A stretch of 64,000 nucleotides of DNA. Origin: Halieaceae bacterium (GTDB lineage: Bacteria > Pseudomonadota > Gammaproteobacteria > Pseudomonadales > Halieaceae). The stretch is taken from contig CBDAQR010000003.1 in NCBI GenBank assembly GCA_965199055.1, positions 329,958 through 393,957 on the forward strand. Reading direction: 5' to 3'. A program made the translations under genes and the position numbers. Each line of letters starts with the position of its first letter. Position 1 is the stretch's first letter. Positions 14,609-60,758 of this stretch are shown here, piece by piece. The notes under the pieces are model-generated. The model saw only the letters and a list, made by a program, of their open reading frames with translations, did no database searches and was not told the DNA's origin.

Positions 14609-15079
14609 ATGCACAAACCCCTGTTACTTGTTTCACTGCTGTCCGGCCTGCTCGGCTGCAGCGTTGAGGTCGACCGCGCCGATAGCACGCCACCCTTTGA
14701 AGTGGTTGCCGATGCGCACGACACCATGATGCATATCCTGGAACCCGCCGCGGATGTCATCTGGGATTCTGCCGGCTATATCATCACCATTGAGGGCGAA
14801 CAAAATCTCGCGCCCACTACCGATGAGCTGTGGACCGAAGTCGTGAACGCGAGCATGGTCATCGCCGAGAGTGGCAATCTGCTGATGCTGCCTGGCCGCA
14901 GCCAGGGGGCAGATTGGAACGCCTATGCGGTGGGCATGATTCAGACCGGCAAACTGGCGATCGAAGCCGCGGAAAACCAGGACGCCGAAGCCCTCTTCGA
15001 CGCCGGCGGTCGTATCTATCAGGTTTGCCGAGCCTGCCATAACCAGTACTGGGTTAAGGAAGACGAGAACGGCGAATGA
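14609..15079 (+). CDS. class II cytochrome c (cytochrome c-prime-like) lipoprotein
   Basis: It has a lipobox (LLGC) and is about 155 aa and helical. A single CXXCH (CRACH) lies about 15 residues from the C-terminus, as in class II c-type cytochromes. An AAGGAG SD precedes the ATG at 14609. Confidence 0.7.
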   Translation: MHKPLLLVSLLSGLLGCSVEVDRADSTPPFEVVADAHDTMMHILEPAADVIWDSAGYIITIEGEQNLAPTTDELWTEVVNASMVIAESGNLLMLPGRSQGADWNAYAVGMIQTGKLAIEAAENQDAEALFDAGGRIYQVCRACHNQYWVKEDENGE

Positions 15080-15750
15080 GTCGAGTTGCCGCAGGCCTGG
15101 CATTAATGCTATTCGCTGCAGGCCTGGCGGCTCACGACCTTTCCGCTGACAACGCGGCATTCGTTCAGGGTCTGCAGGGCGCCGCCGCGGGCCCCTTCCT
15201 CTACCTCGGCGCCAAGCATATGTTTACCGGCTACGATCACCTGCTGTTCCTCGTGGGGGTCATCTTCTTCCTGTACCGACCCCGCGACATCGTACTCTAC
15301 GTAACACTGTTCACCTTGGGCCACAGTCTGACGCTGGTGCTTGGCGTGGGAATGGGCTGGCAGGTCAGCGGACACCTGGTGGATACCGTCATAGGTCTAT
15401 CGATCGTCTACAAGGCATTCGAAAACATGGGTGGCTTTCAACAGTTGTTCGGGATAGAACCGGACACGAGGATTGCGGTATTTGTCTTCGGCCTGTTTCA
15501 CGGCCTCGGTCTCGCGACCAAGCTGCAGGAATACATGGGCACCGGCGAAGGAATGTGGACCAACCTGCTCAGCTTTAATATCGGCGTGGAACTCGGTCAA
15601 CTCGCGGCGCTCACCCTGATTCTGCTGGTGCTGCTGCGATGGCGCGCGCACGGAAGCTATCGGCAGCATGCGTTCGCAACCAATAGCGTTCTGATGTGCC
15701 TGGGTTTTGTTCTGGCAGGCCAGCAATTGGCGGGCTACGTCTATGCCTGA
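15076..15750 (+). CDS. HupE/UreJ-family membrane protein (putative metal transporter)
   Basis: It is polytopic with FTGYDHLLFLVGV and FGLFHGLGLA motifs typical of the HupE/UreJ_2 family. It overlaps the upstream gene by 4 nt. Confidence 0.75.
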   Translation: MSRVAAGLALMLFAAGLAAHDLSADNAAFVQGLQGAAAGPFLYLGAKHMFTGYDHLLFLVGVIFFLYRPRDIVLYVTLFTLGHSLTLVLGVGMGWQVSGHLVDTVIGLSIVYKAFENMGGFQQLFGIEPDTRIAVFVFGLFHGLGLATKLQEYMGTGEGMWTNLLSFNIGVELGQLAALTLILLVLLRWRAHGSYRQHAFATNSVLMCLGFVLAGQQLAGYVYA

Positions 15751-16297
15751 GTCGCGTCGCATTATCGTTAGCTCCGCCGTTAGCTTTGTGGCCGCAGCTA
15801 TCTTGCTCCTCACAGTCGTGCTCCCCGCTGAATACGGTTGGGACCCACTGGGTACCGGCGAGGCCATGGGTCTGCTGGGTCTGGCCGGCGACGATGTTCG
15901 CCCACTGCGCGCTCAGCCGCAGAACTGGCATAGCGATGAAATTCGCTTTCAGCTACTGCCCTTTGAGTCAGTGGAATACAAATACCGGCTGGAGGAAGGC
16001 GCCGCCATGTTGTATCGCTGGACAGCTGACGGGGAACTGCTGTTCGATATGCACAGCGAGCCCGACGGTGCGGCTACGGGTTACGCGGAAACCTTCAATA
16101 AGGCGAACAGCCAAGCTGAGCAGGGGAACTACACTGCGCCCTTTGCCGGCATACACGGCTGGTTTTGGCAGAATCGCGGCGAAGAGGAAGTCACCGTTAC
16201 CCTGCGAACGGCGGGCTTCTACTCAAGCGCAATCGAATTTCGCGACGGCCACAGTTTTCGCTATGCCTTCACGAGTGAAGGCAAGATGCCCGAATAG
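15743..16297 (+). CDS. membrane-anchored hypothetical protein
   Basis: It has one N-terminal TM helix (IIVSSAVSFVAAAILLLTVVL) and a soluble beta-rich C-terminal domain. Its ATG at 15743 overlaps the HupE stop. The alternative frame 15696-16331 is Cys/Trp/Arg-rich junk. Confidence 0.7.
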   Translation: MPESRRIIVSSAVSFVAAAILLLTVVLPAEYGWDPLGTGEAMGLLGLAGDDVRPLRAQPQNWHSDEIRFQLLPFESVEYKYRLEEGAAMLYRWTADGELLFDMHSEPDGAATGYAETFNKANSQAEQGNYTAPFAGIHGWFWQNRGEEEVTVTLRTAGFYSSAIEFRDGHSFRYAFTSEGKMPE

Positions 16298-16321: not shown

Positions 16322-16459
16322 TCAGCCGTAGGCAAGCTCCAGCATCTCTAAAGTGTCCTGAATTTGGACGAACCAATACACGGCAAAAAACACGATGATG
16401 GCGCCTGCACTGATCAGCGCAGCCAGTTGTAGGTCTTTCGAGTCGCTTTGTTCGCTCAT
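16322..16459 (-). CDS. 45-aa single-TM peptide (not in the ORF track), last gene of the PQQ operon
   Basis: It translates as MSEQSDSKDLQLAALISAGAIIVFFAVYWFVQIQDTLEMLELAYG. AGGAG lies 6 nt upstream of the ATG at 16457-16459, 9 nt after the stop of the upstream membrane gene. The stop is a TGA at 16322-16324. Confidence 0.6.
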   Translation of the reverse strand: MSEQSDSKDLQLAALISAGAIIVFFAVYWFVQIQDTLEMLELAYG

Positions 16460-16468
16460 TCTCGTCTC

Positions 16469-17035
16469 CTAACCCGAAAACCCGATCCAACGGCCTGTTG
16501 CAGCCACGGTAAACCAGACCATGACCGACGATACCGCGACCGAACGCACCACCCAGGGGTTTAGCGAATCAATATCGCCGCGCAGCAGCGGACGTTTAAT
16601 GCAAAACACAAACAGTATGCCCGCACCCAGGGCGAGCATCTTGTACCAGAACACATCCAGGTAATAAATCTTCATGGCCACACCACAGGCCATGAACACG
16701 CCAGTCAACAATACGACGGCCAGCCCCCACAAAAACAGCTTGTGCGCCTGCTCCTGGACTTCTGCGCAGGGAACATCGGCAAACAGCCAACCCAGCAAGC
16801 GCGCATCACTGATCAGCACGGCACCACCAAGCAACGCCATGGACAACAGGTGGAAGGCCTGCACTACGGCGAAGGCCGCTCCCCAGGTTTTCCCAATGTG
16901 TCCGAACAGTGTGGTCTCCATCCACTCAAACATCGGCTGCAAACCGTCGTGCAGCTCAGACTTCAAACCGGTAAAGCCAACCAGGAGCGCAATACCCAGT
17001 ACCAGGATGACGCCAATCGTGCGTTGATAAGCCAC
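16469..17035 (-). CDS. uncharacterised 5-TM membrane protein E (paralogue of D)
   Basis: I chose the GTG at 17035 with a G-rich SD 5 nt upstream, 10 nt after the D stop. E shares the motif H-(L/V)-L-(S/T)-(M/L)-x-L-x(2-3)-G-x(4-5)-D-x-R-(L/M)-LGW with D. Confidence 0.75.
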   Translation of the reverse strand: MAYQRTIGVILVLGIALLVGFTGLKSELHDGLQPMFEWMETTLFGHIGKTWGAAFAVVQAFHLLSMALLGGAVLISDARLLGWLFADVPCAEVQEQAHKLFLWGLAVVLLTGVFMACGVAMKIYYLDVFWYKMLALGAGILFVFCIKRPLLRGDIDSLNPWVVRSVAVSSVMVWFTVAATGRWIGFSG

Positions 17036-17045
17036 TGCAGCCCCC

Positions 17046-17615
17046 CTAGAAGTGCGCCTGATCGGCGATACAGCCGGCCAGGTTTCCGATGAATGCGGGA
17101 GGGTTCTTGGCGCAGTCGAACCAGTCATAGGCGATCAGGCGACCGCAGATCACAATGCCAACCCAGAAACTGATGGATAAGGCTGCACCGAGTCGCAAGC
17201 GCGAGGGTGCCTTGGGGTCTGTATCCCAGCTCGACACCGATTCGCTCATGCGTTTATGGAAGAGCCAGGCATTGAGCGCCGCAGCAACCAGGAGCACTAC
17301 CTTTATACGAAACCAAAGGCTCTGCGACGTGCGCACCGGTATCGCGTAGTAAAGCATAATCCCGGTGATAAACATGATGACGAAGCCGACGGCCATGGGC
17401 CACGCCAGCTTGCTGGAAATGCGTGAGGCCGGGATATTCGGAAGCGCCCAGCCCAACATGCGCAAGTCGATGATAAACAACATGCCGAGACTCAGCATCA
17501 GCGTCAGCACATGGGTCGTTTCCACCCAGTTGTACATGTAATAGCTCTCGTGAAGCATGGTGCTCCACTGGTGGCCGTCTATCCAAACGGCAAAATCGTA
17601 GATCAGTTGGTTCAC
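17046..17615 (-). CDS. uncharacterised 4-TM membrane protein D
   Basis: It is 189 aa with 4 predicted TM helices and a Cys-containing C-terminal tail (CGRLIAYDWFDCAKNPPAFIGNLAGC). Its start is 3 nt after the stop of gene C1. Confidence 0.8.
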   Translation of the reverse strand: MNQLIYDFAVWIDGHQWSTMLHESYYMYNWVETTHVLTLMLSLGMLFIIDLRMLGWALPNIPASRISSKLAWPMAVGFVIMFITGIMLYYAIPVRTSQSLWFRIKVVLLVAAALNAWLFHKRMSESVSSWDTDPKAPSRLRLGAALSISFWVGIVICGRLIAYDWFDCAKNPPAFIGNLAGCIADQAHF

Positions 17616-17618
17616 CGA

Positions 17619-18071
17619 TTATCGCTCTCGCGGATCGTATCCATCCTTAGGCGCGCCGGTCCCCGAGGAACCCATGAAGGCACGCTTGCCATCGGCGAGT
17701 GTAATGTCGCGACCGTTGGCTTTGCAGGCCGGATCGCAACTCTTGTTCTTCGCCTGGTAGCCACGCACCTTGATCTCGCTACCTATGGGTACCGAGTTCC
17801 GGTTGATACCGGCGCGCAGTAGAGTGTTCGGAGTACCCCCCTCGACCATCCAGGCCTGGGTACTGCCGTCGGGCTGCTCGGCCGCCAGGTGTATCCATGC
17901 ATGCGGGTTAATCCACTCCACCTTGGTGACCTTTCCCTGCAGGGAGACTGGAGCATCCTTGTCGAACTCTGCGGAAAACGCATGGTGGGCCCAGGCTCGC
18001 CAAGAAGCGACGACAATGACAGGTACAGCTAACAACAAAACTGTTTCTCGGGTCTTCATTGAAATCTTCAT
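17619..18071 (-). CDS. small exported protein C1 with predicted mature N-terminus HHAFSAEFD
   Basis: An AGGAG SD lies 7 nt before the ATG at 18071. The signal peptide ends AWA just before HH. C1 is a paralogue of 57066-57545. I cannot confirm a family name (I recall DUF6152-type annotation, unverified). Confidence 0.8.
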   Translation of the reverse strand: MKISMKTRETVLLLAVPVIVVASWRAWAHHAFSAEFDKDAPVSLQGKVTKVEWINPHAWIHLAAEQPDGSTQAWMVEGGTPNTLLRAGINRNSVPIGSEIKVRGYQAKNKSCDPACKANGRDITLADGKRAFMGSSGTGAPKDGYDPRER

Positions 18072-18075
18072 TTCT

Positions 18076-19041
18076 TCACTCCTGCTCTTCCTGCCGCGCG
18101 CCAGCCAGTATATTCGGCAATCCGTAATTACCTTCGTGGCAAGCGTACTCAAAAATGGGGCCATCGGACTTGCGCAGGGTCAATTCGCCCGCCCAATCCT
18201 GTGTGTAAATGTCCGGATCGGATATCTCGAAGCGATACACCATTTCGTTTTCGTTGATGCGGGTGAAGCGCTCCGTGACCTTCGTATCATCGCCCATCAT
18301 CAACTGGTGCTTGATTGCCAGGCGCAGGAATTGCTCGGGATGGAACTGAGTGGTCTCAACTACCAGAGTGTCGCCTTCCCAGCGGCCGATACTGTCTCCC
18401 AGCCAGGGTTGTATCTGCGGCGGCAGTCTTTCACCCCCTATGCGGAGCGTGCGCACATTGTGGTTCATTTCCACCAGTATCATCACGTGCCCCGGCGACT
18501 GGGCAAACTGATAGTTGTTGTTGTACAGCACCGGCAACATGGGTGGACCGCCGGTGGAGCCAAAGCCCACGGTGCAGCGCTCTCCCTCGGGGCGCTCTTC
18601 GGGATTGTCGGCGAAGTTCAGCAGCTTGTAGGCGTTCCAATAGAAACGTAGCTGTTGATGCCACTTATAAGGTATCTGGCCGTCTGCTGGCTCAACGATA
18701 ATGGAACCGCGCGCTTCTCCGCGTACGCGCAGCGCTTTACTGCCCGGGTCCATCCAGAAGCTGTTGTAGCCGCCAATATCACCGCCGGCCTCGAGATCGC
18801 CTTCGCCCACGTTATCGACCGACTCCATCATCTCTTCCATGCCGTTTTCGACGAAGCGTGCCTCTTCCTCGGTCAGCACCAGGTTAGGCAGTTCATCCGG
18901 TCGCTCCAGGGTCGTTACTGTCGCCGTGGTCCATATCCCCTGCATGTCGGGGTCGCCCCAAGGCATTCTCTGCAACTCCCAGTCTGCAGCCAGGCTTGCG
19001 GGAGCCACCAGGAGCAAAACGATAGAAGCTGTTCTAAGCAT
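18076..19041 (-). CDS. exported uncharacterised protein B1
   Basis: It has a signal peptide MLRTASIVLLLVAPASLA. Its conserved blocks are GGYNSFW, FGSTGGPPMLP, WEGDTLVVETT, VTERFTR and EYACHEGNY. It is a paralogue of 56006-57064. Confidence 0.85.
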   Translation of the reverse strand: MLRTASIVLLLVAPASLAADWELQRMPWGDPDMQGIWTTATVTTLERPDELPNLVLTEEEARFVENGMEEMMESVDNVGEGDLEAGGDIGGYNSFWMDPGSKALRVRGEARGSIIVEPADGQIPYKWHQQLRFYWNAYKLLNFADNPEERPEGERCTVGFGSTGGPPMLPVLYNNNYQFAQSPGHVMILVEMNHNVRTLRIGGERLPPQIQPWLGDSIGRWEGDTLVVETTQFHPEQFLRLAIKHQLMMGDDTKVTERFTRINENEMVYRFEISDPDIYTQDWAGELTLRKSDGPIFEYACHEGNYGLPNILAGARQEEQE

Positions 19042-19054
19042 TTCGTCTATCCCC

Positions 19055-19879
19055 TCAGTCCAGTGGTTCATTGCGCAGGTGCCCGTACATCAGCTCCTCC
19101 ACGAATGGCACGCAATTGAATTGCAAAATACGGTCGTCGGCACCAACGCGTTTATAGAGGTTCATGCTCAGCGTCCAGGGCTGCGTATAGACCTTTTCAT
19201 CCTCCAGAGTCGCCTCGTAGCGCATGGTGTGCTCGCTAGTACGGGTAAATCGCTCGGTGACCTTGAGCTTCTCACTGTGGAAATTCCCCGCGCGGTCGAG
19301 CCAGGTCTGGTCGTTCTGCCCATCGGTATGTATCACCAGGGTATCGCCCTCCCACTCCGCCCAGGACTGGCGCATCCAGGAATCGATCGGTGCCGGGCCC
19401 GGATCGCTCAGCGCCACGTTGCGAACAGCGCCAGCATACTCATAGGAAAATACCAGCGCGTCCTTGTTATGAAAAATCTGAAAAGGGAATGACATATAGT
19501 TGGCCCGAGGGATACCGGGCAGATAACACTTGATCTCGGGATCTCGCTCCAGGTAGTTCGCCCGATTGTCATCGCGTTGCTTGAGCGCCCACTCCTGATA
19601 GGGAATCTTGCCTCCCTCCACATATCCGATACCACCCGGTACCGCACCCACAGCCCCCAGCGCGACCACTTCCTTAGCGGGCACCGGCACTACCGGACCT
19701 TCTCGCATCGCCAAGGCGGCGCGGGGCGCACTGGGTTCCAGATTGTAATTGGCGGTATTGAGCACCTGCCAGACACCATTAAGATCGGGTTTGCCGTCGG
19801 CGGTGCGCGCGGGCTCATAGTCCGCTGCAGCCAGTGCCGACCCGAGCAATATCAGCGATGTGATCAGGCTTCTCAACAT
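19055..19879 (-). CDS. exported uncharacterised protein A1
   Basis: GAGGA lies 5 nt before the ATG at 19879 (track start 19891). It has a signal peptide MLRSLITSLILLGSALA. Its conserved blocks are PDLNGVWQ, RDPEIKCYLPGIPR, DPGPAPIDSWM, WEGDTLV and TERFTR. It is a paralogue of 55141-55983. Confidence 0.85.
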   Translation of the reverse strand: MLRSLITSLILLGSALAAADYEPARTADGKPDLNGVWQVLNTANYNLEPSAPRAALAMREGPVVPVPAKEVVALGAVGAVPGGIGYVEGGKIPYQEWALKQRDDNRANYLERDPEIKCYLPGIPRANYMSFPFQIFHNKDALVFSYEYAGAVRNVALSDPGPAPIDSWMRQSWAEWEGDTLVIHTDGQNDQTWLDRAGNFHSEKLKVTERFTRTSEHTMRYEATLEDEKVYTQPWTLSMNLYKRVGADDRILQFNCVPFVEELMYGHLRNEPLD

Positions 19880-19896
19880 AGTGGTCCTCATATCTT

Positions 19897-21933
19897 TTAC
19901 TTATCGGAATCGTCTGGCAGCGCAAACGCGATGATGTGATCGCCTGGCGGCGCGCCGCCGGCCCAATGACCGCCCGCCGCAATAACTACGAACTGCTTTT
20001 GTCCGGGCCCGGTCTGGTAGGTCATGGGCACCGCATTGCCGGCGGTGGGCAGTCGCGCCTTCCACAACTCTTCACCGGTCTCAAGCGAGTATGCGCGCAG
20101 CGCGTGTTCATTGGCCACACCACTGAATACCAGGCCAGTATCGGTCATCATGGGGCCGCCGAATCCCGGCACCCCTTCGATCCACCAGAAAGGAAAGGGC
20201 GCCATATCTCTGGACGTACCCAGCGGAACACTCCACAGCGTTTTCCCGGCTTCGATATCGATGGCATCCAATGTCGCCCAGGGCGGCGCACTGCAGGGCA
20301 CCCCAAGGGGCGACATAATAAATCCGGTTTCAACACAGTAAGGCGTACCCGTTTGCGGCTGTCCTCTGCCTTCACAGTTTTCACGCGGGATGAGCCGCAA
20401 GCGACCGGCAACGCGGGTAGTGGCAACAACCATCACACCGGTATCGGGATGTATCGCCGGAGAGCCCCAGTTGTTACCACCGGCGTTCACCGGGTAGTGC
20501 ACCGTACCTTCCAGGGATGGGGGCGTGTAAATGCCTTCATTACGCATTTCTGACAAGGTATTGGCGCACGCTGCCTCATCGAACAGCACCATACCCCAGG
20601 CATCATCCGCCGTTAGCGGTGCATCGATGGTGTAGGGAATATGCGAGGGAAAAGGTTGGGTGGGCGATAGATACTCACCCTCTACCGCGCCTTCCTGCGG
20701 TACGGGTCTTTCCTCCACCGGCCACAGGGGCTCGCCCGTCTCTCGGTGAAAGGCAAAGGTCATCCCCATCTTCGTTACCTGCACCACAGCTGGCACTGTC
20801 TTGCCCTCCACACTCAGGTCGACCAGGGTGGGCTGTGCCGGTGTGTCATAGTCCCAGATGTCGTGATGCACCATCTGGTAATACCAGGCCACCTCGCCGC
20901 TTTCCCCGTGCAGGGCAACGGTGGAACTCGAATAATGATCCAAATCCCCCTCAACCAGTCTGCGATGTCCGCCGTAGTAATCCGGCGTGGTGTTGCCGGT
21001 TGGCAAAAACACCAGATCGCGCTCTTCATCCACCGAGATGATGGACCAGACACTAGTCGTACCGCTGCGCCAGGTGCCGTCTTCGTGTCTTGCATCCAAG
21101 CCAGGGGGCACTGGATTCCAGGCCCACAGCATTTCTCCACTGCGGACATCGAAGGCCTTAACCACACCCGCGGGTGAGGTGGTGCGCTGGTTGTCCAAGA
21201 CCATCGACCCCGTGATGATGCGATCACCCAGAATCGCCGGCGGCGATGTAATACCGTGCTCGGCCGAATGATGCTCGCTGAGACGGCCGCTGGTATCGAC
21301 CTGGCCCGCTTCACCAAAGTCAGGACAGGGCTTACCCGTTTCGGCATCCAGAGCTATGAGCCGCGCATCGAGCGTGCCCAGAATAATGCGGTGTTCACAG
21401 AAACCTTGCTCACCCGAGCGCCAGCTACTAACGCCACGGCAGTTGGGCAACACCGGCTCGGCATCCATATCGACCTGCGGATCAAAACTCCAGCGCTCCT
21501 GACCGGTGTTGGCATCCAGCGCAAACACTCGATTAAACGCGGTGCAGTAATACAGCGTGTCTTCAACGACGATAGGCGTGACCTGCAGCGAGCTCTGGCT
21601 GTGGCGACTACGTGAACCATGCCCTCCCTCTTCTTCCAGGGTCGGTTCACCCTCACCCCAGTAGGCTTCGCGAAAATCTCCGGAGCGATGCGTCCAGGCT
21701 ACTTCCAGTCGAGCGACATTGGCAGGGGTAATCTGGCTGGCGCGGGAAAAGTGTGTACCACCACCGGTGGCGCCGAATGCAGGCCAGTCGGCCACAACAT
21801 TGCGAGGCGCCGCTGCGGCCACTGCTTCATTACCGGCGTCAATACTGGCACCGCAAGCCACCAGTACTCCGGCTACAGGTATGGTTGCCGCCAACAGTAG
21901 TGATTGGGTGATCTGCTTAGCCCGCAGATTCAT
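19897..21933 (-). CDS. PQQ-dependent dehydrogenase, glucose/quinate/shikimate (Gcd) family, lipoprotein form without the N-terminal TM domain
   Basis: It has Gcd-type blocks (VAWTHRSGDF, TPIVVEDTLYYCTAFNRVFALDANTGQERWSFDP, VVKAFDVRSGEMLWAWNP) and the C-terminal GGHWAGGAPPGDHIIAFALP. The N-terminus is a signal peptide with lipobox LVAC. I chose the ATG at 21933. Confidence 0.88.
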   Translation of the reverse strand: MNLRAKQITQSLLLAATIPVAGVLVACGASIDAGNEAVAAAAPRNVVADWPAFGATGGGTHFSRASQITPANVARLEVAWTHRSGDFREAYWGEGEPTLEEEGGHGSRSRHSQSSLQVTPIVVEDTLYYCTAFNRVFALDANTGQERWSFDPQVDMDAEPVLPNCRGVSSWRSGEQGFCEHRIILGTLDARLIALDAETGKPCPDFGEAGQVDTSGRLSEHHSAEHGITSPPAILGDRIITGSMVLDNQRTTSPAGVVKAFDVRSGEMLWAWNPVPPGLDARHEDGTWRSGTTSVWSIISVDEERDLVFLPTGNTTPDYYGGHRRLVEGDLDHYSSSTVALHGESGEVAWYYQMVHHDIWDYDTPAQPTLVDLSVEGKTVPAVVQVTKMGMTFAFHRETGEPLWPVEERPVPQEGAVEGEYLSPTQPFPSHIPYTIDAPLTADDAWGMVLFDEAACANTLSEMRNEGIYTPPSLEGTVHYPVNAGGNNWGSPAIHPDTGVMVVATTRVAGRLRLIPRENCEGRGQPQTGTPYCVETGFIMSPLGVPCSAPPWATLDAIDIEAGKTLWSVPLGTSRDMAPFPFWWIEGVPGFGGPMMTDTGLVFSGVANEHALRAYSLETGEELWKARLPTAGNAVPMTYQTGPGQKQFVVIAAGGHWAGGAPPGDHIIAFALPDDSDK

Positions 21934-22142
21934 TAAAGCCCCCTGAATAATTATCGTTATGCGCACATACTCAAGATTCAAAAGTGTTACGCAGCGTTGG
22001 AGCCTTTGCAAGGAAAACATACCCAGCATTCTAATATGCTAAACCGCCGTTAAAGGCTATCTGTGTTTCACCCTCTTGATAGGGGGTTTCGCATACTGTA
22101 ACTTCGAAGATGATAAAAATAATTTCACAATGAGGTACACCC

Positions 22143-52385: not shown

Positions 52386-52528
52386 AGTATCCCTCGCCCA
52401 CCGCACTATTATGCGGCACGAACATACTGTAAAGTCGAAAAGAACAATAATGGTACAAAAAACAGTCAATTACCAGCACGGCGTGCAGTGTAAACATGAC
52501 AGATTGTTAACAATTGCAGACAGGGGAA

Positions 52529-53554
52529 ATGCGTGTGTTTAAGAAGCTAATTCTGTGGACCTTGGGGGCTTTTGCTGTGGGATTTGCGGCGCTGGCCTTG
52601 CTCATGCACCTCAGCGCGCGCAGCGCCCTGGACAACGAACTTCAATACAGCGCCTCTGTCGCCATGTTACCGGTCTTCAGCCCTGCAACGACCGACGGCC
52701 TGGTGCGAATTAGCGCCAACGATATGGAGTATCGTGCTCGCATCGCGGGATTTACTGCCAACGAGGATGGCAGCATTCGCCCCACCGTTATTCTACTGCA
52801 CGGCTGGCCCACCACCTCCGCCATGTGGATTCCACTTATCCAGCCACTGGTCGATGCAGGCTACCGGGTATTCGCACCCGACCAGCGCGGCTACAGCGTG
52901 GGTGCTCGCCCCGTGGGGCGTGACAACTACACCGTAGATAGATTGAGTGCTGACATCCTTGCGCTCGCCGACGAGATCGGCGTTGATCAGTTCCATCTCG
53001 TCGGTCACGACTGGGGCGCGGTGGTCGGCTGGCAAACGGTGCTGACGGCATCTGAGCGGGTAATCAGTTGGAATGCGCTATCTATCGCCCACCCGGCGTC
53101 TTTCGGTGCTGCGGTTGAAAACGATCCCGACCAGGCGGCACGCAGCCGCTATTTCATGTTATTTGCGACGCCGTGGCTGGCTGAATCGGTATTCTCGATG
53201 CGAGACTTCGCACTGTTAAAGGGTGCCTACGGACCGTTCCCTGAAGACACGAAAGCTGAGTTTCTGGCCATGTTTGCCGAACCCGGCGCAATGACCGCGG
53301 GCTTCAACTGGTACCGCGCCATGCTGGTGACCGCTGAGAGTGGCCCGAATTGGAACCCTGAAGTGAATACGCCGACCTTATTCGTATGGGGTAATCAGGA
53401 TGGCGCCGTGGGCCGCTGGGCGACCGAAGACCAGGCGCGCTTCATGAAGGGTCCTTACCAGATAATCGAGGTAGAAGCGGGTCACTGGTTACTGGCCACC
53501 GATGACGGCACCGTGATCAATGCCGTCGTGCAGCATATTCAGTCTCAATCCTGA
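52529..53554 (+). CDS. alpha/beta hydrolase (epoxide hydrolase / haloalkane dehalogenase-like)
   Basis: It has LLHGWPTTS (HGxP oxyanion motif) and the nucleophile elbow VGHDWGA. The N-terminus is a TM/signal segment. I chose the ATG at 52529. Confidence 0.85.
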   Translation: MRVFKKLILWTLGAFAVGFAALALLMHLSARSALDNELQYSASVAMLPVFSPATTDGLVRISANDMEYRARIAGFTANEDGSIRPTVILLHGWPTTSAMWIPLIQPLVDAGYRVFAPDQRGYSVGARPVGRDNYTVDRLSADILALADEIGVDQFHLVGHDWGAVVGWQTVLTASERVISWNALSIAHPASFGAAVENDPDQAARSRYFMLFATPWLAESVFSMRDFALLKGAYGPFPEDTKAEFLAMFAEPGAMTAGFNWYRAMLVTAESGPNWNPEVNTPTLFVWGNQDGAVGRWATEDQARFMKGPYQIIEVEAGHWLLATDDGTVINAVVQHIQSQS

Positions 53555-55053
53555 GCGGGCTTCACCCGGCGTTGGTACTGGGCCTCAATCAGGTCCAACT
53601 TGGCACCGATCACGTTCGCCTGAACCGAATCCTCATTGCCGAACACTTTCCAGTCGCCGCCAGGCGCCACCTCGGGCCAGGCTTGCGCAGCCGGTGCATT
53701 GGGATTTCCCGTTCGAGCAAACTGCAACCAATAAGCACGCATGCGCTTTGACATGGCCGCAGTTAGCGGCTCATCTTGCAAATGCCCGCCCCAGATATAT
53801 TGGCCGTCTGCTCCGTGCGCAGAGCCGTAACGCTTACCCGCCTGTTCCGGCGGTAGAAAGTCGATGTAATACAGCCAAGCCGGTTGCGAAACCTTTGCCA
53901 TAGACTGTGCCAGTAAGCGTGCAGAGATCAGGTAACGGTTATCACCCCACATGCGCTGGAGCCAGACGCCGTCGCTATCGGCTTGGTAGAGCTGGCGCGC
54001 CAGCATGGCGTCATCGCCCAGCGCCCGCCGATAATCAGCTTCGCTAATACCCGAAAATGGCATGACCGAGCCCTCAAAACTGTTGCCGCCAGACATATAG
54101 GGCACGGACTGTTGTTGGCCTCGCATGAATCGAAGGCCCGGCTCTTCAATCAATGAAACGCCATCGACCACCGGCACTTGAAAACCCTGCACGGCATTCG
54201 CCAGGGCCTGCCCGTCCAGGCCTCGGAGCATGGCTTCCGTCTGCTTGGCGTCGGTAATCCGACTCACGAGCTCGCGGCCCATCCTCTCTGCCGACTGCGC
54301 CGGGCGACCGTCCATCGTCAGGGGGGCTGGTTTTGGCGCGCCCTTGGAACGCGGCAATGCCCAGGTTGCGTAACCACTTTGCGCTATCGCCTGATGAAAC
54401 AGCCCCTGGGTCTGGTCGCTCGCCATAAGCAGGTTTACTGCCATGCCACCCGCGGAGACGCCGAAAATAGTGACATTACCCGGGTCACCGCCAAATGCCG
54501 CAATATTGGTCTGCACCCATTGCAATGCCAGCACCATATCCAAAAAGCCAGGATTGGCAGGCAAGCCCGCGAGGGAGTCGTGTGCGAAAAAGCCCAAGGG
54601 ACCAAGCCGATAATTGATCGACACCAGCACGATATCTTCCACGGCAAATGACTCGCCCGGGATCATGCCGGAACCGCCACGAAAAGCACCGCCATGAATC
54701 CACACCATCACGGGTCGCTTCGCATCGTCCAGACCTCGCGTCCAGACATTCAGCAAAAGACAGTCTTCGCTCGTGTGACCAGCATCGATACCCGGCATGG
54801 CTGATTGCAAGCAGGCCGAACCAAAATCCTGCACCGCCAGGGGCGCGGCAAGCGCACGCTTTGGCACCGGTGCACGCCAGCGCAAGTCACCCAGCGGTGG
54901 TTCGGCATAGGGCACCCCCTTGAAGCTATAAATGCCCTGGTCAAGTTTGCCCTTCAGCTCACCACTGCTGGTAACTACGTTGGCCGCAGCCAAAGGCAAG
55001 CTCATACAAACGGTAAGACCCAGAAGGGCTGAAACGGCTCTGAACATACTCAC
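53545..55053 (-). CDS. type-B carboxylesterase/lipase
   Basis: It has EDCLLLNVW and GGDPGNVTIFGVSAGG (the carboxylesterase type-B signatures) plus a signal peptide. Confidence 0.9.
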   Translation of the reverse strand: MSMFRAVSALLGLTVCMSLPLAAANVVTSSGELKGKLDQGIYSFKGVPYAEPPLGDLRWRAPVPKRALAAPLAVQDFGSACLQSAMPGIDAGHTSEDCLLLNVWTRGLDDAKRPVMVWIHGGAFRGGSGMIPGESFAVEDIVLVSINYRLGPLGFFAHDSLAGLPANPGFLDMVLALQWVQTNIAAFGGDPGNVTIFGVSAGGMAVNLLMASDQTQGLFHQAIAQSGYATWALPRSKGAPKPAPLTMDGRPAQSAERMGRELVSRITDAKQTEAMLRGLDGQALANAVQGFQVPVVDGVSLIEEPGLRFMRGQQQSVPYMSGGNSFEGSVMPFSGISEADYRRALGDDAMLARQLYQADSDGVWLQRMWGDNRYLISARLLAQSMAKVSQPAWLYYIDFLPPEQAGKRYGSAHGADGQYIWGGHLQDEPLTAAMSKRMRAYWLQFARTGNPNAPAAQAWPEVAPGGDWKVFGNEDSVQANVIGAKLDLIEAQYQRRVKPAQD

Positions 55054-55140: not shown

Positions 55141-55983
55141 ATGCGAAAACTCCTACTCACCCTATTTATCATTATTACTCCTCTCGCCTGTGCGAGCAGC
55201 ACGGCAACTGGCGAGTATAAAGCACCGCGTGGACCCGGAGGCGTGAACCCCGATCTCAACGGGATCTGGCAGGCGATGAATGAAGCCCACTATGATCTTG
55301 AGCGCCATATGGCTCGCTCCTCCATGGAAGAGCGCGAAGGACCGCGTGGCCCCGTTCCTTCTCGCGGCACGGTCGCATTAGGCGCAGTGGTCTCAGTACC
55401 GCCCGGCCTTGGCGTCGTCGAGGGTGGCGACATACCCTACACCCCGGAAGCGCTGGCAAAGCGTAATGAGAATCGCGCCAACTGGCTGGAGCGCGACCCC
55501 GAGATCAAGTGCTATCTCCCCGGCATACCCCGCTCGACCTACATGCCTACCCCCTTCCAGATTATCCAGGGAGATAAGGATGTATTCATGGTGCACACCT
55601 ATGCCAACGCCGTGCGCAACATCTACTCGAATGATCCGGGCCCGGCGCCCATCGACTCCTGGATGGGCCAAACCGTTCTGAGCTGGGACGGTGACACCAT
55701 GGTGTTAACCACCACCGGGCAACTCGCCGACACCTGGCTGGATCGGGCTGGTAATCACCACTCCGAACAAATGGTGGTGGTAGAACGCTTTACGCCGGCC
55801 AGCCCCAATCATCTGCATTACGCGGCGACCATCACCGATCCAGCTGTATTCACCCGACCCTGGACGATCAGCATGCCACTTTACCGGCGCATGGAACCGG
55901 ACATAAAGATTCTCGACTTCAAGTGTCCGGAGTTCGTTGAAGAACTGATGCACGGCGAGTGGCGTCGCCATCCTTTGGATTAA
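55141..55983 (+). CDS. exported uncharacterised protein A2 (paralogue of A1)
   Basis: It shares long identical blocks with 19055-19879: RANxLERDPEIKCYLPGIPR, DPGPAPIDSWM, TWLDRAGN, FVEELM. Confidence 0.88.
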   Translation: MRKLLLTLFIIITPLACASSTATGEYKAPRGPGGVNPDLNGIWQAMNEAHYDLERHMARSSMEEREGPRGPVPSRGTVALGAVVSVPPGLGVVEGGDIPYTPEALAKRNENRANWLERDPEIKCYLPGIPRSTYMPTPFQIIQGDKDVFMVHTYANAVRNIYSNDPGPAPIDSWMGQTVLSWDGDTMVLTTTGQLADTWLDRAGNHHSEQMVVVERFTPASPNHLHYAATITDPAVFTRPWTISMPLYRRMEPDIKILDFKCPEFVEELMHGEWRRHPLD

Positions 55984-56005
55984 GAAGCGCCACAGGAGAT
56001 TATCG

Positions 56006-57064
56006 ATGAAGAAACAGATAGCGATAGCAGCCATAGCACTGAGCGCCACGCCGCTGGCATGGGGCGAAGTGCCCCGCACTTCCTGGGGCGCGCCCGACCT
56101 GAGCGGCAACTACAACACCGCAACACTCACCCCGCTGCAGCGGCCCCAGGAGTTTGGCGACAAAGCCTACGCCACCAAGGAAGAGGCAGCGGCTATCGTA
56201 GCGGCCTACGAGGCGCGCGCCGCAAAACTCAATGAGGGCCAATCGGATGATCCAAACCGCAAAGCCCCTCCCAAGGGCGGTGACGGTAACTACAGCTTTG
56301 GCGCGGGCGGAGTCGGAGGCTACAACTCTTTCTGGGTCGATCCTGGTACCAGCGCGAATACTGTCGACGGAAAATTTCCCACCTCGATCATTTACGATCC
56401 CCCGAGCGGTCGCTGGCCTGCGCTGACACCAGCGGGACAGAAGGAACTGGCGCGGCGCTTTTCGCCGAAACCCAATACCGGTACGGCGTGGTGGTTGGAA
56501 AAAGGTGACGGCAGCGGCCCTTACGATAACCCGGAAGATCGCCCTACTTCGGATCGCTGCCTGATGGCATTCGGTTCCAGCGGCGGGCCACCCATGTTGC
56601 CCACGCTATACAACAACATGAAGCGCATTGTGCAGAGCCCCGACCACGTGATGATCCTGGTGGAGATGGTGCACGATGCCCGCGTGATTCGATTGAACAG
56701 CGAACACGTGTCGCCGGACATTCGCAAATGGCTGGGCGATTCCATCGGCTGGTGGGACGGAGACACACTGGTGGTGGAGACTACCAATTTCAATGATCAT
56801 CCCGGCATGTATGGCGCCACTCGTGACTTAAAAGTAACGGAACGTTTTACGCGCATCGACGCTACCACGCTGAACTACGAGTTTACGGTGGAGGACCCCA
56901 ACGTGTGGACGACGCCCTGGAGCGGCCGTTACAGTTGGCCTATTACCAATGACCCCGTTTACGAGTACGCCTGTCACGAGGCGAACTACGCAATGGGCAA
57001 CATACTGCGCGGCGCACGCTTGCTGGAAGCCGAAGCGGAACAACAGGAATCAGGTGGCGACTAA
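56006..57064 (+). CDS. exported uncharacterised protein B2 (paralogue of B1)
   Basis: It shares GGYNSFWxDPG, FGSxGGPPMLPxLYNN, QSPxHVMILVEM, WLGDSIGxWxGDTLVVETT, VTERFTRI and YEYACHExNY with 18076-19041. Confidence 0.88.
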   Translation: MKKQIAIAAIALSATPLAWGEVPRTSWGAPDLSGNYNTATLTPLQRPQEFGDKAYATKEEAAAIVAAYEARAAKLNEGQSDDPNRKAPPKGGDGNYSFGAGGVGGYNSFWVDPGTSANTVDGKFPTSIIYDPPSGRWPALTPAGQKELARRFSPKPNTGTAWWLEKGDGSGPYDNPEDRPTSDRCLMAFGSSGGPPMLPTLYNNMKRIVQSPDHVMILVEMVHDARVIRLNSEHVSPDIRKWLGDSIGWWDGDTLVVETTNFNDHPGMYGATRDLKVTERFTRIDATTLNYEFTVEDPNVWTTPWSGRYSWPITNDPVYEYACHEANYAMGNILRGARLLEAEAEQQESGGD

Positions 57065-57065
57065 T

Positions 57066-57545
57066 ATGAATAGATCCGAACAGAAACCCCAGTATCGATC
57101 CAAAGCGATTGAAGGCATTCGGCCCATCTACCTGCTGGTTGCGCTCGCCCTGGCAACCGCGGCCTACTTCTCCGGCCAGGCGGTTGGCCATCACGCCTTT
57201 TCGGCGGAGTTTGACCCCAATCGACCGCTGGTGCTGCGCGGCCCGGTCACCAAGGTAGAGTGGGTTAACCCGCACGCCTGGATTCACCTGGACGCGGAAA
57301 TGGAGGACGGTTCAACGGAATCCTGGATGGTAGAGGGCGGCACCCCCAATACACTGCTGCGTCGCGGAATCAACAAGAACACGGTCAAGCCGGGCACCTA
57401 CATCATCGTGGATGGCTATCAGAGCAAAGACCGCTCCAACCGCGCCAATGGTCGCAACATTACTCTGGCTGACGGTCGCAAGCTGTTCATGGGCTCTTCC
57501 GGTACCGGTGCACCCAAAGACGGCGCGGACCCCACTGAGCGTTAA
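57066..57545 (+). CDS. small exported protein C2 with predicted mature N-terminus HHAFSAEFD (paralogue of C1)
   Basis: Its ATG at 57066 lies 1 nt after the B2 stop. It shares HHAFSAEFD, VTKVEWxNPHAWIHL, WMVEGGTPNTLLR, ITLADG and FMGSSGTGAPKDG with C1. Confidence 0.85.
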   Translation: MNRSEQKPQYRSKAIEGIRPIYLLVALALATAAYFSGQAVGHHAFSAEFDPNRPLVLRGPVTKVEWVNPHAWIHLDAEMEDGSTESWMVEGGTPNTLLRRGINKNTVKPGTYIIVDGYQSKDRSNRANGRNITLADGRKLFMGSSGTGAPKDGADPTER

Positions 57546-57581
57546 TCCGGCGCCGACCCTACCGAACGTTAATCCGGCGCG
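57522..57581. repeat. 27-bp tandem duplication (2.2 copies) spanning the C2 stop codon and the convergent MFS stop
   Basis: Unit 1 (57522-57548) is GGCGCGGACCCCACTGAGCGTTAATCC. Unit 2 (57549-57575) is GGCGCCGACCCTACCGAACGTTAATCC. A partial third unit, GGCGCG, follows. The units are 23/27 identical. Confidence 0.9.
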
Positions 57582-58888
57582 TTCTGTAAATCCTCCCGCA
57601 GCGTGCGGGAGGCCAGGAAGAAGTGTGTCAGTGACCACACCGACACCACCGGTATCACGTATAGCATTGCGTAGCGCAACGACTCTGCACCGAGCGTAGG
57701 CTGCAACATATCGCTGACCATACCCACCGTCCAGGGCCCGGCGCCCAGGCCGATGATATTCAGAATGAAGAACAGAATTGCCGAGGCCATAGCACGCATG
57801 CGCAGACCTACCAGGCCGTGTGACATCGCCAGCGCATTGCCGAGATACACGTTCGACATAATCGCGGGAATGATCATGCACATCAGCGCTGTGTACTTAC
57901 CGTCGACCAGATAAACCGACACCACGAACGGCAGCGCGACGATTCCAGCAATGCCCGGCAACCATACATGCCAGCGTTTGTCTTTAGGGGCGAGCCGATC
58001 GGCCAACAAACCGCCACAGAGTACACCGACCGCGCCGCCGAAGCCCATAATCATCGCCAGCCAGGTGCCGAGTTCTCCCGTAGACATTTCGTGGGAGCGA
58101 ATCATAAAGGACGCTGTCCAGTTGCTAATGCTGTAGCTGGCAAACGCATTGAGTGCAGCGCCCAGAGCAATATGGCGAAAGGCCCTCGCTGTCCACAGCA
58201 CACCCAACACGCCGGTAAACGTGGTGGATGATGAATCCGCGGTACGGTTTTCTGACAAGCCGCGTATCGGTTCCGCCATGGTGTAGCGAACCACAACTGC
58301 TAGCACGACACCGGGAAGCCCCACCACGATAAAGGCGACGCGCCAACCAAAAAACTCATTGAGCCAACCGCCAAACAGGAAGCCAAACAAAATACCGATG
58401 TTGACCCCCATGGAATAAAACCCCAGCGCACTCGCGCGCCGCTCTGGCGGGAAAATATCGGAAATCATGGAGTGCGAGGGCGGACTGCCACCCGCTTCCC
58501 CGACCCCAACGCCAATACGTGCGAGCAGCAGTTGCACATAGTTCTGCACGAAACCGCTAAGTGCGGTCATGCCACTCCATACCGCCAATGCCAGTGCGAC
58601 AATGTTGCGGCGATTCGAGTGGTCGGCCCAGCGCGCAATGGGAATCCCGGCGGTCACGTAAAACACGGCGAAGGCAAAACCGGTTAACAAACCCAATTGG
58701 CCGTCGGAGAGGTCTAGCTCTGCCTTAATGGATTCCTGCAGGATCGCCAGTAACTGACGATCGATGAAATTGAAACTATAGACGATCGTCAGCAGAACCA
58801 GCGCATAGTAGGCGTTACGGCGATTCGCGTAGGGGTTATCGATATCGGCAGGACTGCCCTCAGCCGGCCTGGCTGTTTCCTCGCTCAT
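57569..58888 (-). CDS. MFS transporter
   Basis: It has 12 predicted TM helices with MFS motifs (FNFIDRQLL, ADHSNRRN). It is downstream of the quinohemoprotein gene. Confidence 0.88.
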   Translation of the reverse strand: MSEETARPAEGSPADIDNPYANRRNAYYALVLLTIVYSFNFIDRQLLAILQESIKAELDLSDGQLGLLTGFAFAVFYVTAGIPIARWADHSNRRNIVALALAVWSGMTALSGFVQNYVQLLLARIGVGVGEAGGSPPSHSMISDIFPPERRASALGFYSMGVNIGILFGFLFGGWLNEFFGWRVAFIVVGLPGVVLAVVVRYTMAEPIRGLSENRTADSSSTTFTGVLGVLWTARAFRHIALGAALNAFASYSISNWTASFMIRSHEMSTGELGTWLAMIMGFGGAVGVLCGGLLADRLAPKDKRWHVWLPGIAGIVALPFVVSVYLVDGKYTALMCMIIPAIMSNVYLGNALAMSHGLVGLRMRAMASAILFFILNIIGLGAGPWTVGMVSDMLQPTLGAESLRYAMLYVIPVVSVWSLTHFFLASRTLREDLQNAPD

Positions 58889-58907: not shown

Positions 58908-60758
58908 TTATTGTTTTCGCGGACGGAAAGCGAGTAACACATTGCCGGCCGGTTGCCCAAACATACCATAACCGGAGTTCACGAACAGCGTGCCGTTGGC
59001 CGCCGTAATGCCCGCATTATCGATAGCGCCACCGTGACCGCTGACGCCGTTGATGCCATCAAACTTGCGCAGGCTGTCGTAGCGGAACAACACGGAGCCG
59101 TCGTCAGCATCAAAGGCAATAATTTTTCCATCCAGACTACCCTGTACGACCGCACCCTCGAGCGCGAGCGGCGCATTAGAATATCCGAAGTACCACATGC
59201 ATCGCGGCGCGCGTTCCTGACGACCCTCACAGTCCGCGCTGGCCGGTTGTTCCCACAGCAGGTCTCCGCTGCTGGCATCCAGCGCGTAGAGACCTGGATA
59301 GCGCTCTTTACCCGGTTGGCTGATGCCAGGGTCGTTAAGCGGCACAAACACGCGCTTGCCATGGTAGGCCATGCCCCAGTGCACACCGCCCAGCGGCGTG
59401 CCGTCGCCCCGGTTCCAGTGCCAGACCAATTTGCCCTTCTGATCGGGATCAAGCGCCCAGACAGAACTGGATTTCTGGCCGGCGAGCAGCAGATCCCGAC
59501 CCTTGGCGTCACTGGCAATAATGACCGAGGCCCCAAAATCCACATCGCGCTCAACGCTGTATTCAGGTGGACAATTCAGCGGACGCGGCTGCTGACGACA
59601 ACCACTGAGGAAAATATCCTGCGCGGTTGCCTGAAACGACCAGCGAATATCTCCGGTCTCCATATCCAACGCGATGATGGCATCCGTGTTGCCGTGAGCA
59701 GGTTCCGAGGTGCTCTCGCCCGTGCCCACATAGAGCAGTCCTCGCTTCTCATCGATCGCGGGTGAAGTCCATACCGGTGCACCCGAGGGGCCAAAGATCT
59801 GTTGGCCATCGCCGCGGTCTCGCTGCGCGGTAGCGGGTGGCAGCATGGGTGTGTACCAAAGTACCTTCCCGGTCCTGGCATCAAGCGCTGCAACTGCACC
59901 GCTTGCCTTACAGCATTCATAGTGATCGGCCGCCGCCACCATAATTTCGAACTGACTAACGCTCGCGTAGACACGCTCGCCCACCAGTACGGGTGTACCT
60001 GTGATAACGGACTGTGGAAAACGTTTTAGATCAGCAATCCACAACGCTTCACCCGTGCGCGCATCAATTGCGTGCACCCGCGCCTGGCTATCACCCACCA
60101 ACAAAACAGGCTGCTGCCCGGTGACACCGTAGGTCAGACTGCTGCGCAATTGCATGTCAGCGCTATACACCCAACGTAGGCAGGGATCGCCGCTGATATC
60201 GAAGGCATAGAGTTCCAGTGTCTGGATGGGACTGACAAAGAGCGTGTTGCCGACAATAGCGGGTTGCGCGCGCATCTCCGTCACGCCGGGAAAGGCGAGC
60301 GCCCAGGCTAGCTCCAGCGTCGACACATCTGTCTTGCCCAGGCCGGCACGTTCGCGATTGAGATAGCGGTGATTTTGAGGCCCCAGGCCGAAGCCACTGA
60401 CCGCAGTGCCACCGGCAAGCTTCGCCCTCGAATTTTCGCAGCGCATGGCAGACTGCCAACTACGGTCCACACTGGGATCACCGCTCAGGTATTCAGACAC
60501 CGCGCTGATCTCGGCACTGGAAAGCAGTTGTCCCTGCGCCTGCATGCGCCCTTCACGCAGCGCATAGGCGATCATCGGGGATGGCATTTGCTGCAGCGCA
60601 GACCGCGAACGTGACTTAGTCTCTTCCGGGTTGTCGTGGCAGGCCGCGCAATGCTGTTGATACACCTGCTCGCCCTTCGACAGCTCCGCTGTATTCGAAA
60701 AACCCGGCAACAGGAGCGTCGCCAGGATCAATGCGCTGACGGGCAGACGATAACTCAT
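58908..60758 (-). CDS. PQQ-type beta-propeller dehydrogenase with an N-terminal cytochrome c domain (quinohemoprotein, PVA-dehydrogenase-like architecture)
   Basis: It has a signal peptide, then CAACHDNPEE with downstream Met residues as candidate axial ligands (ALQQMPSPM), then repeated PQQ/BamB-like propeller blades (AxDxxTGxxLW motifs x4). Its ATG overlaps the stop of the upstream decarboxylase (ATGA). Confidence 0.8.
   Translation of the reverse strand: MSYRLPVSALILATLLLPGFSNTAELSKGEQVYQQHCAACHDNPEETKSRSRSALQQMPSPMIAYALREGRMQAQGQLLSSAEISAVSEYLSGDPSVDRSWQSAMRCENSRAKLAGGTAVSGFGLGPQNHRYLNRERAGLGKTDVSTLELAWALAFPGVTEMRAQPAIVGNTLFVSPIQTLELYAFDISGDPCLRWVYSADMQLRSSLTYGVTGQQPVLLVGDSQARVHAIDARTGEALWIADLKRFPQSVITGTPVLVGERVYASVSQFEIMVAAADHYECCKASGAVAALDARTGKVLWYTPMLPPATAQRDRGDGQQIFGPSGAPVWTSPAIDEKRGLLYVGTGESTSEPAHGNTDAIIALDMETGDIRWSFQATAQDIFLSGCRQQPRPLNCPPEYSVERDVDFGASVIIASDAKGRDLLLAGQKSSSVWALDPDQKGKLVWHWNRGDGTPLGGVHWGMAYHGKRVFVPLNDPGISQPGKERYPGLYALDASSGDLLWEQPASADCEGRQERAPRCMWYFGYSNAPLALEGAVVQGSLDGKIIAFDADDGSVLFRYDSLRKFDGINGVSGHGGAIDNAGITAANGTLFVNSGYGMFGQPAGNVLLAFRPRKQ

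Follow-up and report, generated by a model that had tools for sequence, protein, structure and literature searches.

In the CopC/CopD and YcnI/YcnJ systems a small secreted beta-protein that begins, once mature, with a conserved histidine is encoded beside membrane proteins of the CopD-like superfamily, and CusF is a secreted single-domain protein of the oligonucleotide/oligosaccharide-binding (OB) fold. Periplasmic dehydrogenase complexes combine a catalytic subunit with a cytochrome c and a membrane subunit, dedicated cytochromes being known also for pyrroloquinoline quinone (PQQ) dehydrogenases. Here we describe three adjacent genes, A2, B2 and C2, at 55141-57545 of a 64-kb stretch of a Halieaceae genome (assembly GCA_965199055.1, contig CBDAQR010000003.1; 'the window' below is this whole stretch of 64,000 nucleotides). 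Together they form a second copy, confined to the periplasmic core, of an uncharacterised but widespread membrane-associated module that recalls each of these systems in some respect, and of which a fuller copy, built around the genes A1, B1 and C1, lies elsewhere in the window.

As the preliminary description of the window had proposed, the open reading frames (ORFs) A2, B2 and C2 (Table 1) repeat the A-B-C order of the first operon (16322-22029, minus strand, in the order PQQ1-A1-B1-C1-D-E-peptide) on the opposite strand. The second triad is tightly packed, with 22 nt from the A2 stop to B2 and 1 nt from the B2 stop to the C2 ATG, and to judge from sequence and operon spacing A, B and C are most probably co-transcribed secreted proteins. 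All the motif blocks quoted earlier are found in both copies (RDPEIKCYLPGIPR, DPGPAPIDSWM, GGPPMLPxLYNN, GDTLVVETT, HHAFSAEFD and WMVEGGTPNTLLR), and roughly half or more of the residues had been estimated by eye to be identical. BLASTP gave identities of 53% for A2 and A1 (over 280 aa, E 3e-107), 40% for B2 and B1 (E 3e-83) and 63% for C2 and C1 (over 145 aa, E 8e-65), and MAFFT codon alignments gave 54%, 45% and 72% at the protein level for A, B and C respectively (C on the mature parts). The DNA has clearly diverged: nucleotide identity in the codon alignments is 59%, 53% and 64%, third-position identity is about 39%, non-synonymous divergence (dN) is 0.29-0.57, and synonymous divergence (dS) is 2.0-4.0 and hence saturated, while the G+C content, overall and at third codon positions, matches that of the window in both copies. 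The triads are therefore not an assembly repeat; the copies are real, old and under purifying selection, 'purifying, very old' being all that dN/dS can tell with dS saturated.

The accompanying claim of an old duplication turned out to be an understatement. The best identities of A2, B2 and C2 to proteins of other genomes reach 74%, 68% and 81%, other phyla included (77% between C2 and one Gemmatimonadota locus), and for A1 marine metagenomes yield sequences of up to 76% identity. Because A2, B2 and C2 are closer to orthologues in other genomes than to A1, B1 and C1, these comparisons indicate that the two triads are distinct ancient subtypes and not a recent duplication. Operons of the A1 type in marine metagenomes typically run A-B-(B)-C-X-D-E (X, D and E are described below), and A2-type loci mostly consist of A-B-C by itself.

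To examine how regularly these genes travel together, we assembled 80 genome loci from an A2-led alignment and 80 metagenome loci from A1, onto which the window proteins were mapped, and counted linkage in the 54 loci that remained after de-duplication at 90% A identity and extended for 4 kb or more in both directions. B was present within 4 kb of A in 48 loci (89%) and C in 49 (91%), so that the three families are far from usually single or unlinked; with loci from three phyla, namely Gammaproteobacteria (Halieaceae, Porticoccaceae and others), Acidobacteriota and Gemmatimonadota, this conserved linkage strongly supports the earlier suggestion that A, B and C function together. The commonest architecture was A-B-C on one strand. 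A divergent DUF6152 subfamily (about 37% identity to C2, which is itself a DUF6152 protein) has a compact A/B-superfamily gene directly after it, and on a Novosphingobium plasmid the DUF6152 gene is likewise followed by an A-like gene, in the company of X and two DUF6644 genes. The invariant core thus consists of an A/B-superfamily protein and DUF6152. Recurrent neighbours encoding short-chain dehydrogenases/reductases, PhoR, Pst, acyl-CoA dehydrogenase and RmuC were attributed to lineage synteny and not to the module, and a scan for promoters and terminators did no better than on shuffled sequence. In some metagenome contigs (L082-L085) dnaK-dnaJ and a gene for a MerR-family regulator (possibly HspR-like) are directly followed by a DUF6152 gene of divergent type and a compact A-like gene, and this dnaK-dnaJ-MerR-DUF6152-A-like order is conserved in several contigs.

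In fuller loci the module exceeds the triad, the core being joined by X, two DUF6644 proteins and sometimes HupE/UreJ_2 and Y, more regular partners that the original parts list had missed. D, E and X were each found within 4 kb in about 41% of the 54 loci (22, 23 and 22 respectively), HupE/UreJ_2 and Y in six each. X, a secreted protein of about 145 aa, is encoded in the gap of about 450 bp between C and D in A1-type operons, and X-like genes are present in 58 loci. A conserved N-terminal Met and a C-terminal CxxCH were found in 57 sequences of about 120 mature residues; the X of the window has a probable lipobox and is thus lipoprotein-like. Its match to the cytochrome c' family PF01322 scored 22 bits (cut-off 26.5), and the weak matches seen in 7 of 8 members, at profile positions 63-121, fall on the haem end of the profile. 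In the first locus the DUF6644 family (PF20349) matched E at 184.5 bits and D at 28.3 bits. All 52 D/E proteins collected match DUF6644, with scattered sub-threshold matches to CopD, DUF2214 and HemJ; for CopD (PF05425) the score was 23.1 bits against a cut-off of 32.1, and any weak match occurred in only 11 of the 52. They have four transmembrane segments and one conserved His each, and are encoded almost exclusively within 1.5 kb of a triad. The HupE/UreJ_2 protein of the window scored 175 bits against PF13795 (cut-off 24.5); its gene lies within 1.5 kb of the triad in every genome locus in which it was detected, with Y as its constant partner. In the window the X-HupE2-Y operon (14609-16297, plus strand) is convergent with the triad-1 operon, and in Porticoccaceae loci the X, HupE/UreJ_2 and Y genes directly follow C, one locus (L047) reading A-B-C-X-HupE2-Y on one strand. 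The only homologues of D, E and the small peptide in the window lie at 16322-17615, with none near 55141-57545, and triad 2 therefore lacks all three, as first described.

A and B are, by sequence, paralogues within one superfamily. A2 and B2 match each other in BLASTP (E 7e-12), the two families group together in an all-against-all comparison, and A1, A2, B1 and B2 align end to end over their full length, with an N-terminal PDLxG, a Cys pair, W-GDTLV, ERFT and a C-terminal C-x-E in common. A profile of the four window proteins retrieved 21,098 representatives at 50% identity (E <= 1e-3), and the more than 8000 homologues of A2 are every one named 'hypothetical'. Searches of Pfam and NCBIfam with E values up to 10 returned nothing meaningful, only sub-threshold matches at chance level, and searches of the PDB with single sequences and with 148- and 150-sequence profiles gave no match. 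AlphaFold, given an alignment of 14 sequences, produced a poor model of A2, with a predicted local distance difference test (pLDDT) score of 44, for which reason its Foldseek matches (E >= 0.04) are meaningless and were discarded. A lipocalin-like fold is likewise unsupported, the sole DUF3471 match lying in a domain that a single A-like protein (L064:4590-5651) has in addition at its C-terminus.

The main argument for a complex of A with B comes from the distribution of conserved residues. Compact single-copy relatives (L062, L082 and N. humi) carry E..H..R, DGRxH and G-H-P-H-S in one chain, and single proteins of the L081 type also keep all the A/B His/Glu/Asp motif sets. B proteins keep the first two sets (E in 82 of 82, H in 81 of 82, second H in 74 of 82) and are missing the third; in A proteins the first two positions show Gly or a gap, and the third set is kept (H in 83 of 83, with the neighbouring Asp in 83 of 83). 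Accordingly distributed residues are seen in the window itself, where A2 retains the Cys pair C124/C262 and the WLDRAGNHHS motif and B2 retains E220, H223, R226 and H234 and a C185/C323-H324-E325 motif. Such complementary retention is the pattern expected of a homo-oligomer that has turned into a hetero-oligomer, and we infer on this basis that A and B may form a heteromer. In two Acidobacteria, at L038 (15256-16509) and L043 (13685-15046), a B paralogue carries the X domain, cytochrome c'-like and with a CVQCH motif, at its N-terminus, a fusion that appears to link the superfamily to haem-based electron transfer.

The superfamily is also found in other fusions and in expanded sets. The B domain is joined in P0404 to a DUF3089 alpha/beta-hydrolase and in P0400 to a squalene-hopene-cyclase-like repeat. 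Paralogues are multiplied as a tandem B-A-C B-A-C (L049), as A-B-B-B-C (L063 and L070) and as A-B-B-C-X-D-E in many marine contigs (among L092-L101).

C belongs to DUF6152 (PF19649), which C2 matched at 113 bits and C1 at 121 bits (cut-off 27), as did all listed homologues. The predicted cleavage context of C2 is AVG|HH, with the mature domain starting at His42-His43 (nt 57189), and a His-His pair directly after a predicted AxA-type signal-peptidase site was found in all 65 locus-encoded homologues. Among 150 diverse DUF6152 proteins the residues H1, H2, D9, N27-P28-H29, W46 and E49 are invariant, and no Met occurs among the invariant or near-invariant columns. A model built from this 150-sequence alignment (pLDDT 87.8) matched OB folds in Foldseek (LysRS anticodon-binding domains, SSB and PriB; E about 1e-3, template modelling scores 0.4-0.6), and on the strength of the model C is predicted to be a secreted OB-fold protein. 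The canonical subtype has a conserved C-terminal tail, FMGSSGTGAP, which is modelled with lower confidence; conservation combined with low model confidence suggests a docking peptide. Direct reading of the signal peptides of A2, B2, C1 and C2 revealed no twin-arginine (RR) motif, so that any cofactor would be acquired in the periplasm. Lanthanide handling by the triad, considered owing to the PQQ enzymes, was rejected, the conserved ligands of C being His and not carboxylate-rich loops. In the library searched we found no paper that mentions DUF6152 or DUF6644, and nothing relevant on the histidine brace with the OB fold or on HupE/CopD/PQQ.

The preliminary description had also tied the triad to quinoprotein biology, a view that holds only for the slot immediately beside the module. 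In 107 de-duplicated loci, with distances taken from the module as a whole, seven PQQ genes lay in the 92.6 kb at 0-500 bp and 11 in the 903 kb at 0.5-8 kb; 1.67 would be expected in the adjacent bin (Poisson P 0.0017), and the rate there is about six times that of the flanks. Co-location is otherwise not regular, with a PQQ gene within 4 kb in only 5 of the 54 loci (9%), and distances from the A-B-C block only, in the genome set, show no clear decay. PQQ genes lie upstream on the same strand in the window, L090, L119 and L056, downstream on the same strand in L020 and L024, divergently in L086, and convergently, directly after E, in L123 and L133. Those that abut the module are of more than one type, glucose-dehydrogenase-like as well as PQQ2-like with an N-terminal cytochrome, and genes of the latter type also adjoin it in L024, L043, L058 and L076. 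The association of PQQ genes with the module is real but facultative. For triad 2 the distance of 1.4 kb reported earlier is essentially correct (1,363 bp from the C2 end at 57545), with the qualification that PQQ2 lies on the opposite (minus) strand in a decarboxylase-PQQ2-MFS operon (MFS, major facilitator superfamily) that is convergent with triad 2 and not part of the triad operon.

Table 1. Positions of the genes of both triad loci and of their neighbours in the window (TM, transmembrane segment).
Feature	Position	Strand	Description	Evidence or remark
A2	55141..55983	+	Secreted 280-aa A/B-superfamily protein, A subtype	ORF; 53% identity to A1
B2	56006..57064	+	Secreted 352-aa paralogue of A, B subtype	ORF; BLASTP against B1
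C2	57066..57545	+	DUF6152, signal peptide and mature OB-fold domain (predicted)	PF19649 E 7e-33
MFS transporter	57569..58888	-		PF07690 E 3e-44; context, outside module
PQQ2	58908..60758	-	N-terminal cytochrome c (CAACH) and PQQ-type beta-propeller	
Carboxylesterase	53545..55053	-		PF00135 E 3e-95; context
PQQ1	19897..22029	-	Glucose/quinate-type PQQ dehydrogenase	PF01011 E 3e-217; first gene of triad-1 operon
A1	19055..19891	-		Pairwise BLASTP with A2
B1	18076..19071	-		Pairwise BLASTP with B2
C1 (DUF6152)	17619..18071	-		Start probably 18071; predicted mature N-terminus after AWA|HH
D	17046..17615	-	Four-TM DUF6644 (CopD-like) membrane protein	
E	16469..17128	-	DUF6644 membrane protein, D paralogue	PF20349 E 2e-54
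Small peptide	16322..16459	-	45 aa, single TM	Also after E in L006, L007 and L154
X	14609..15079	+	Probable class II (cytochrome c'/c-556-like) c-type cytochrome	C-terminal CRACH
HupE/UreJ_2 membrane protein	15076..15750	+		PF13795 E 9e-52
Y	15707..16297	+	TM-anchored, periplasmic domain of about 150 aa	No Pfam family

In the immediate surroundings of triad 2, A2 is divergent from the carboxylesterase gene, with an 87-bp intergenic region between them, and a carboxylesterase also adjoins the module in L005 and L058. The MFS gene lies between C2 and PQQ2, convergent with C2 and downstream of PQQ2 in the latter's operon. At the first locus, the TIGR03074 match of PQQ1 is limited to profile positions 112-783, the N-terminal membrane domain being missing, and its start is probably the Met at 21933, which gives a lipobox, LVAC; PQQ1 therefore resembles, by its sequence, a soluble variant with a lipid anchor, and would as such depend on an external electron acceptor. 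An orthologue of PQQ1 (75%) is found upstream of A1 in L090.

Three further genes in the window deserve mention. A TonB-dependent receptor gene (22143-24554, plus strand), divergent from the PQQ1 operon, has an in-frame TAA at 22446-22448 (context ...RGVGRFSN*LGTAPGVAIYNDG..., both ORFs in the same frame), which is either a nonsense mutation, making this a pseudogene, or a sequence error. The pyridoxal phosphate-dependent decarboxylase gene upstream of PQQ2 (60755-62188, minus strand) is the second interrupted gene of the window, with an in-frame stop at 61805-61807 (...DWLRQLTG*SEAWSG...). Finally, a gene at 50292-52469 (minus strand) encodes a secreted protein of 725 aa with a redoxin domain, a CAECH haem motif and a C-terminal pair of EF-hands, the latter giving weak lanmodulin-like matches (PDB 6mi5, E 1e-3; NCBIfam LanM, E 8e-5, far below the cut-off); cytochrome-containing relatives of this protein occur in nine module loci.

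As to function, our preferred reading, which we hold tentatively and at somewhat less than an even chance, is that the module forms a periplasmic metal- and haem-linked redox complex, in which an A/B heteromer and C are coupled via X and D/E to the membrane. The A/B heteromer would together retain the His/Glu/Asp set of the single-copy relatives; C would dock on it and either supply its N-terminal His-His as metal ligands or deliver metal acquired in the periplasm. Cytochrome X and D/E would carry electrons between the membrane and this unit in the periplasm, and PQQ dehydrogenases and other secreted catabolic enzymes would be interchangeable neighbours that share substrates or an electron route with the module. 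Triad 2, which comes without X, D and E, would probably rely on those encoded at the first locus or else on the haem domain of the quinohaemoprotein next to it. For the metal, copper is the foremost candidate, by analogy with proteins that use their first mature His as a ligand, although we regard copper specifically as far less probable than the redox complex itself. A more specific proposal, to which we assign a decidedly low probability, is that A/B plus C is a new periplasmic metalloenzyme, an oxidoreductase beside PQQ dehydrogenases in marine Gammaproteobacteria and Acidobacteriota, in which the His-His of an OB-fold subunit, histidine-brace-like, would sit in a site shared by two subfunctionalised paralogues, linked to the respiratory chain via its own class II cytochrome c and a CopD/HemJ-like pair.

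Several observations count against the redox complex. Any cofactor or metal site is putative, and A and B have no recognisable fold (recall the pLDDT of 44 for A). Copper- or metal-responsive regulators, P-type ATPases and multicopper oxidases are not recurrent beside the module, and Met-rich motifs are not present. About 60% of loci, triad 2 among them, have no D, E or X within 4 kb, and we infer the formation of an A-B-C complex from synteny only. The paralogue expansion (A-B-B-B-C, tandem B-A-C B-A-C) and the hydrolase fusions would fit substrate handling equally well.

Of the other explanations, pure metal trafficking or homeostasis, analogous to CopC/CopD or YcnI/YcnJ and with no catalysis on organic substrates, would make C a metallochaperone, D/E and HupE/UreJ_2 permeases, and A/B periplasmic proteins for metal binding or buffering. 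In its favour, C has the predicted mature His-His and the invariant Asp, His and Glu, D/E are CopD-like, HupE/UreJ_2 and Y lie directly beside the module in 12 loci, and A and B have His-rich conserved positions. We nevertheless consider it unlikely, given that C has an OB fold and not the CopC beta-sandwich, that the CopD matches stay under the Pfam cut-off (23 versus 32 bits), and that neither a dedicated c-type cytochrome nor B-cytochrome fusions would be expected of simple trafficking. The several paralogous cores per genome and operon would also be unusual for chaperones, and no metal-sensing regulator or riboswitch was found, riboswitches having been sought with Rfam scans of the window and eight related loci.

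Alternatively, A/B could be periplasmic substrate-binding or catalytic accessories for the breakdown of hydrophobic or polymeric compounds with an adjacent secreted enzyme (a PQQ dehydrogenase, esterase or amidohydrolase), the cytochrome and membrane proteins being secondary. This too we think improbable. The neighbours do include PQQ dehydrogenases, beta-lactamase-fold hydrolases, amidohydrolases, carboxylesterases and a GH39-like protein, but each of these families is present in only a few loci; the strong paralogue expansion and the fusions of the B domain to DUF3089 and to the squalene-cyclase-like repeat, and of an A-like protein to DUF3471, fit well, yet no binding fold could be established, and the invariant pairing with C, the His-His N-terminus, X, D and E are left unexplained. 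A role of the triad as dedicated accessories of PQQ dehydrogenases, for example in maturation or electron acceptance, corresponds to the link first proposed and is very unlikely: both window triads lie near PQQ genes, and such genes abut the module in at least seven independent loci and in four arrangements at the raised rate given above, but about 90% of the loci whose flanks are long enough lack a PQQ gene within 4 kb, and the abutting genes are not of a single type.

A second triad near a PQQ gene is by itself a modest finding; its value is that it led to the module and to the actual list of its parts. The large A/B superfamily is found in Acidobacteriota, Gemmatimonadota and abundant marine Gammaproteobacteria, and has no family model, structure or literature that we could find. 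Its linkage to DUF6152 turns scattered hypothetical genes into a defined, testable multi-protein system, which is defined more sharply still by the partners that it often has, namely a cytochrome of its own and a pair of CopD/HemJ-like membrane proteins. Should the module prove to be a redox enzyme or a metal route, it would fill a gap in the periplasmic substrate oxidation or enzyme maturation of oligotrophs.

Set against the systems with which we began, the module is most like CopC/CopD and YcnI/YcnJ in C, a small secreted beta-protein predicted to start with a conserved His, and in the encoding of the CopD-like D/E beside it. It differs in that C has an OB fold and no match to the CopC or YcnI families, in that D/E match CopD below threshold and are two short four-TM paralogues, and in that C and D/E are always joined to A/B proteins and often to a cytochrome. 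C resembles CusF as a secreted single-domain OB fold with proposed metal handling, but lacks a conserved Met/Met/His site, the module has no CusCBA-type partners, and CusF is not among the top Foldseek matches of the C model. As in periplasmic dehydrogenase complexes, periplasmic proteins are paired with a small c-type cytochrome and small membrane proteins, sometimes directly beside a PQQ dehydrogenase; the putatively catalytic A/B, however, fall in no known cofactor family and have no twin-arginine translocation signal and no flavin, molybdopterin, iron-sulfur or PQQ-propeller signature. X, for its part, is like the class II cytochromes c (cytochrome c', c-556; PF01322) in size, in the CxxCH near its C-terminus and in the Met near its N-terminus, and unlike them in scoring below the Pfam gathering threshold, in being lipoprotein-like and in being dedicated to the module or fused to B. 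As each of these comparisons fails on at least one defining feature, we rate the module, its function being read from sequence and context, as probably lying outside the known kinds.

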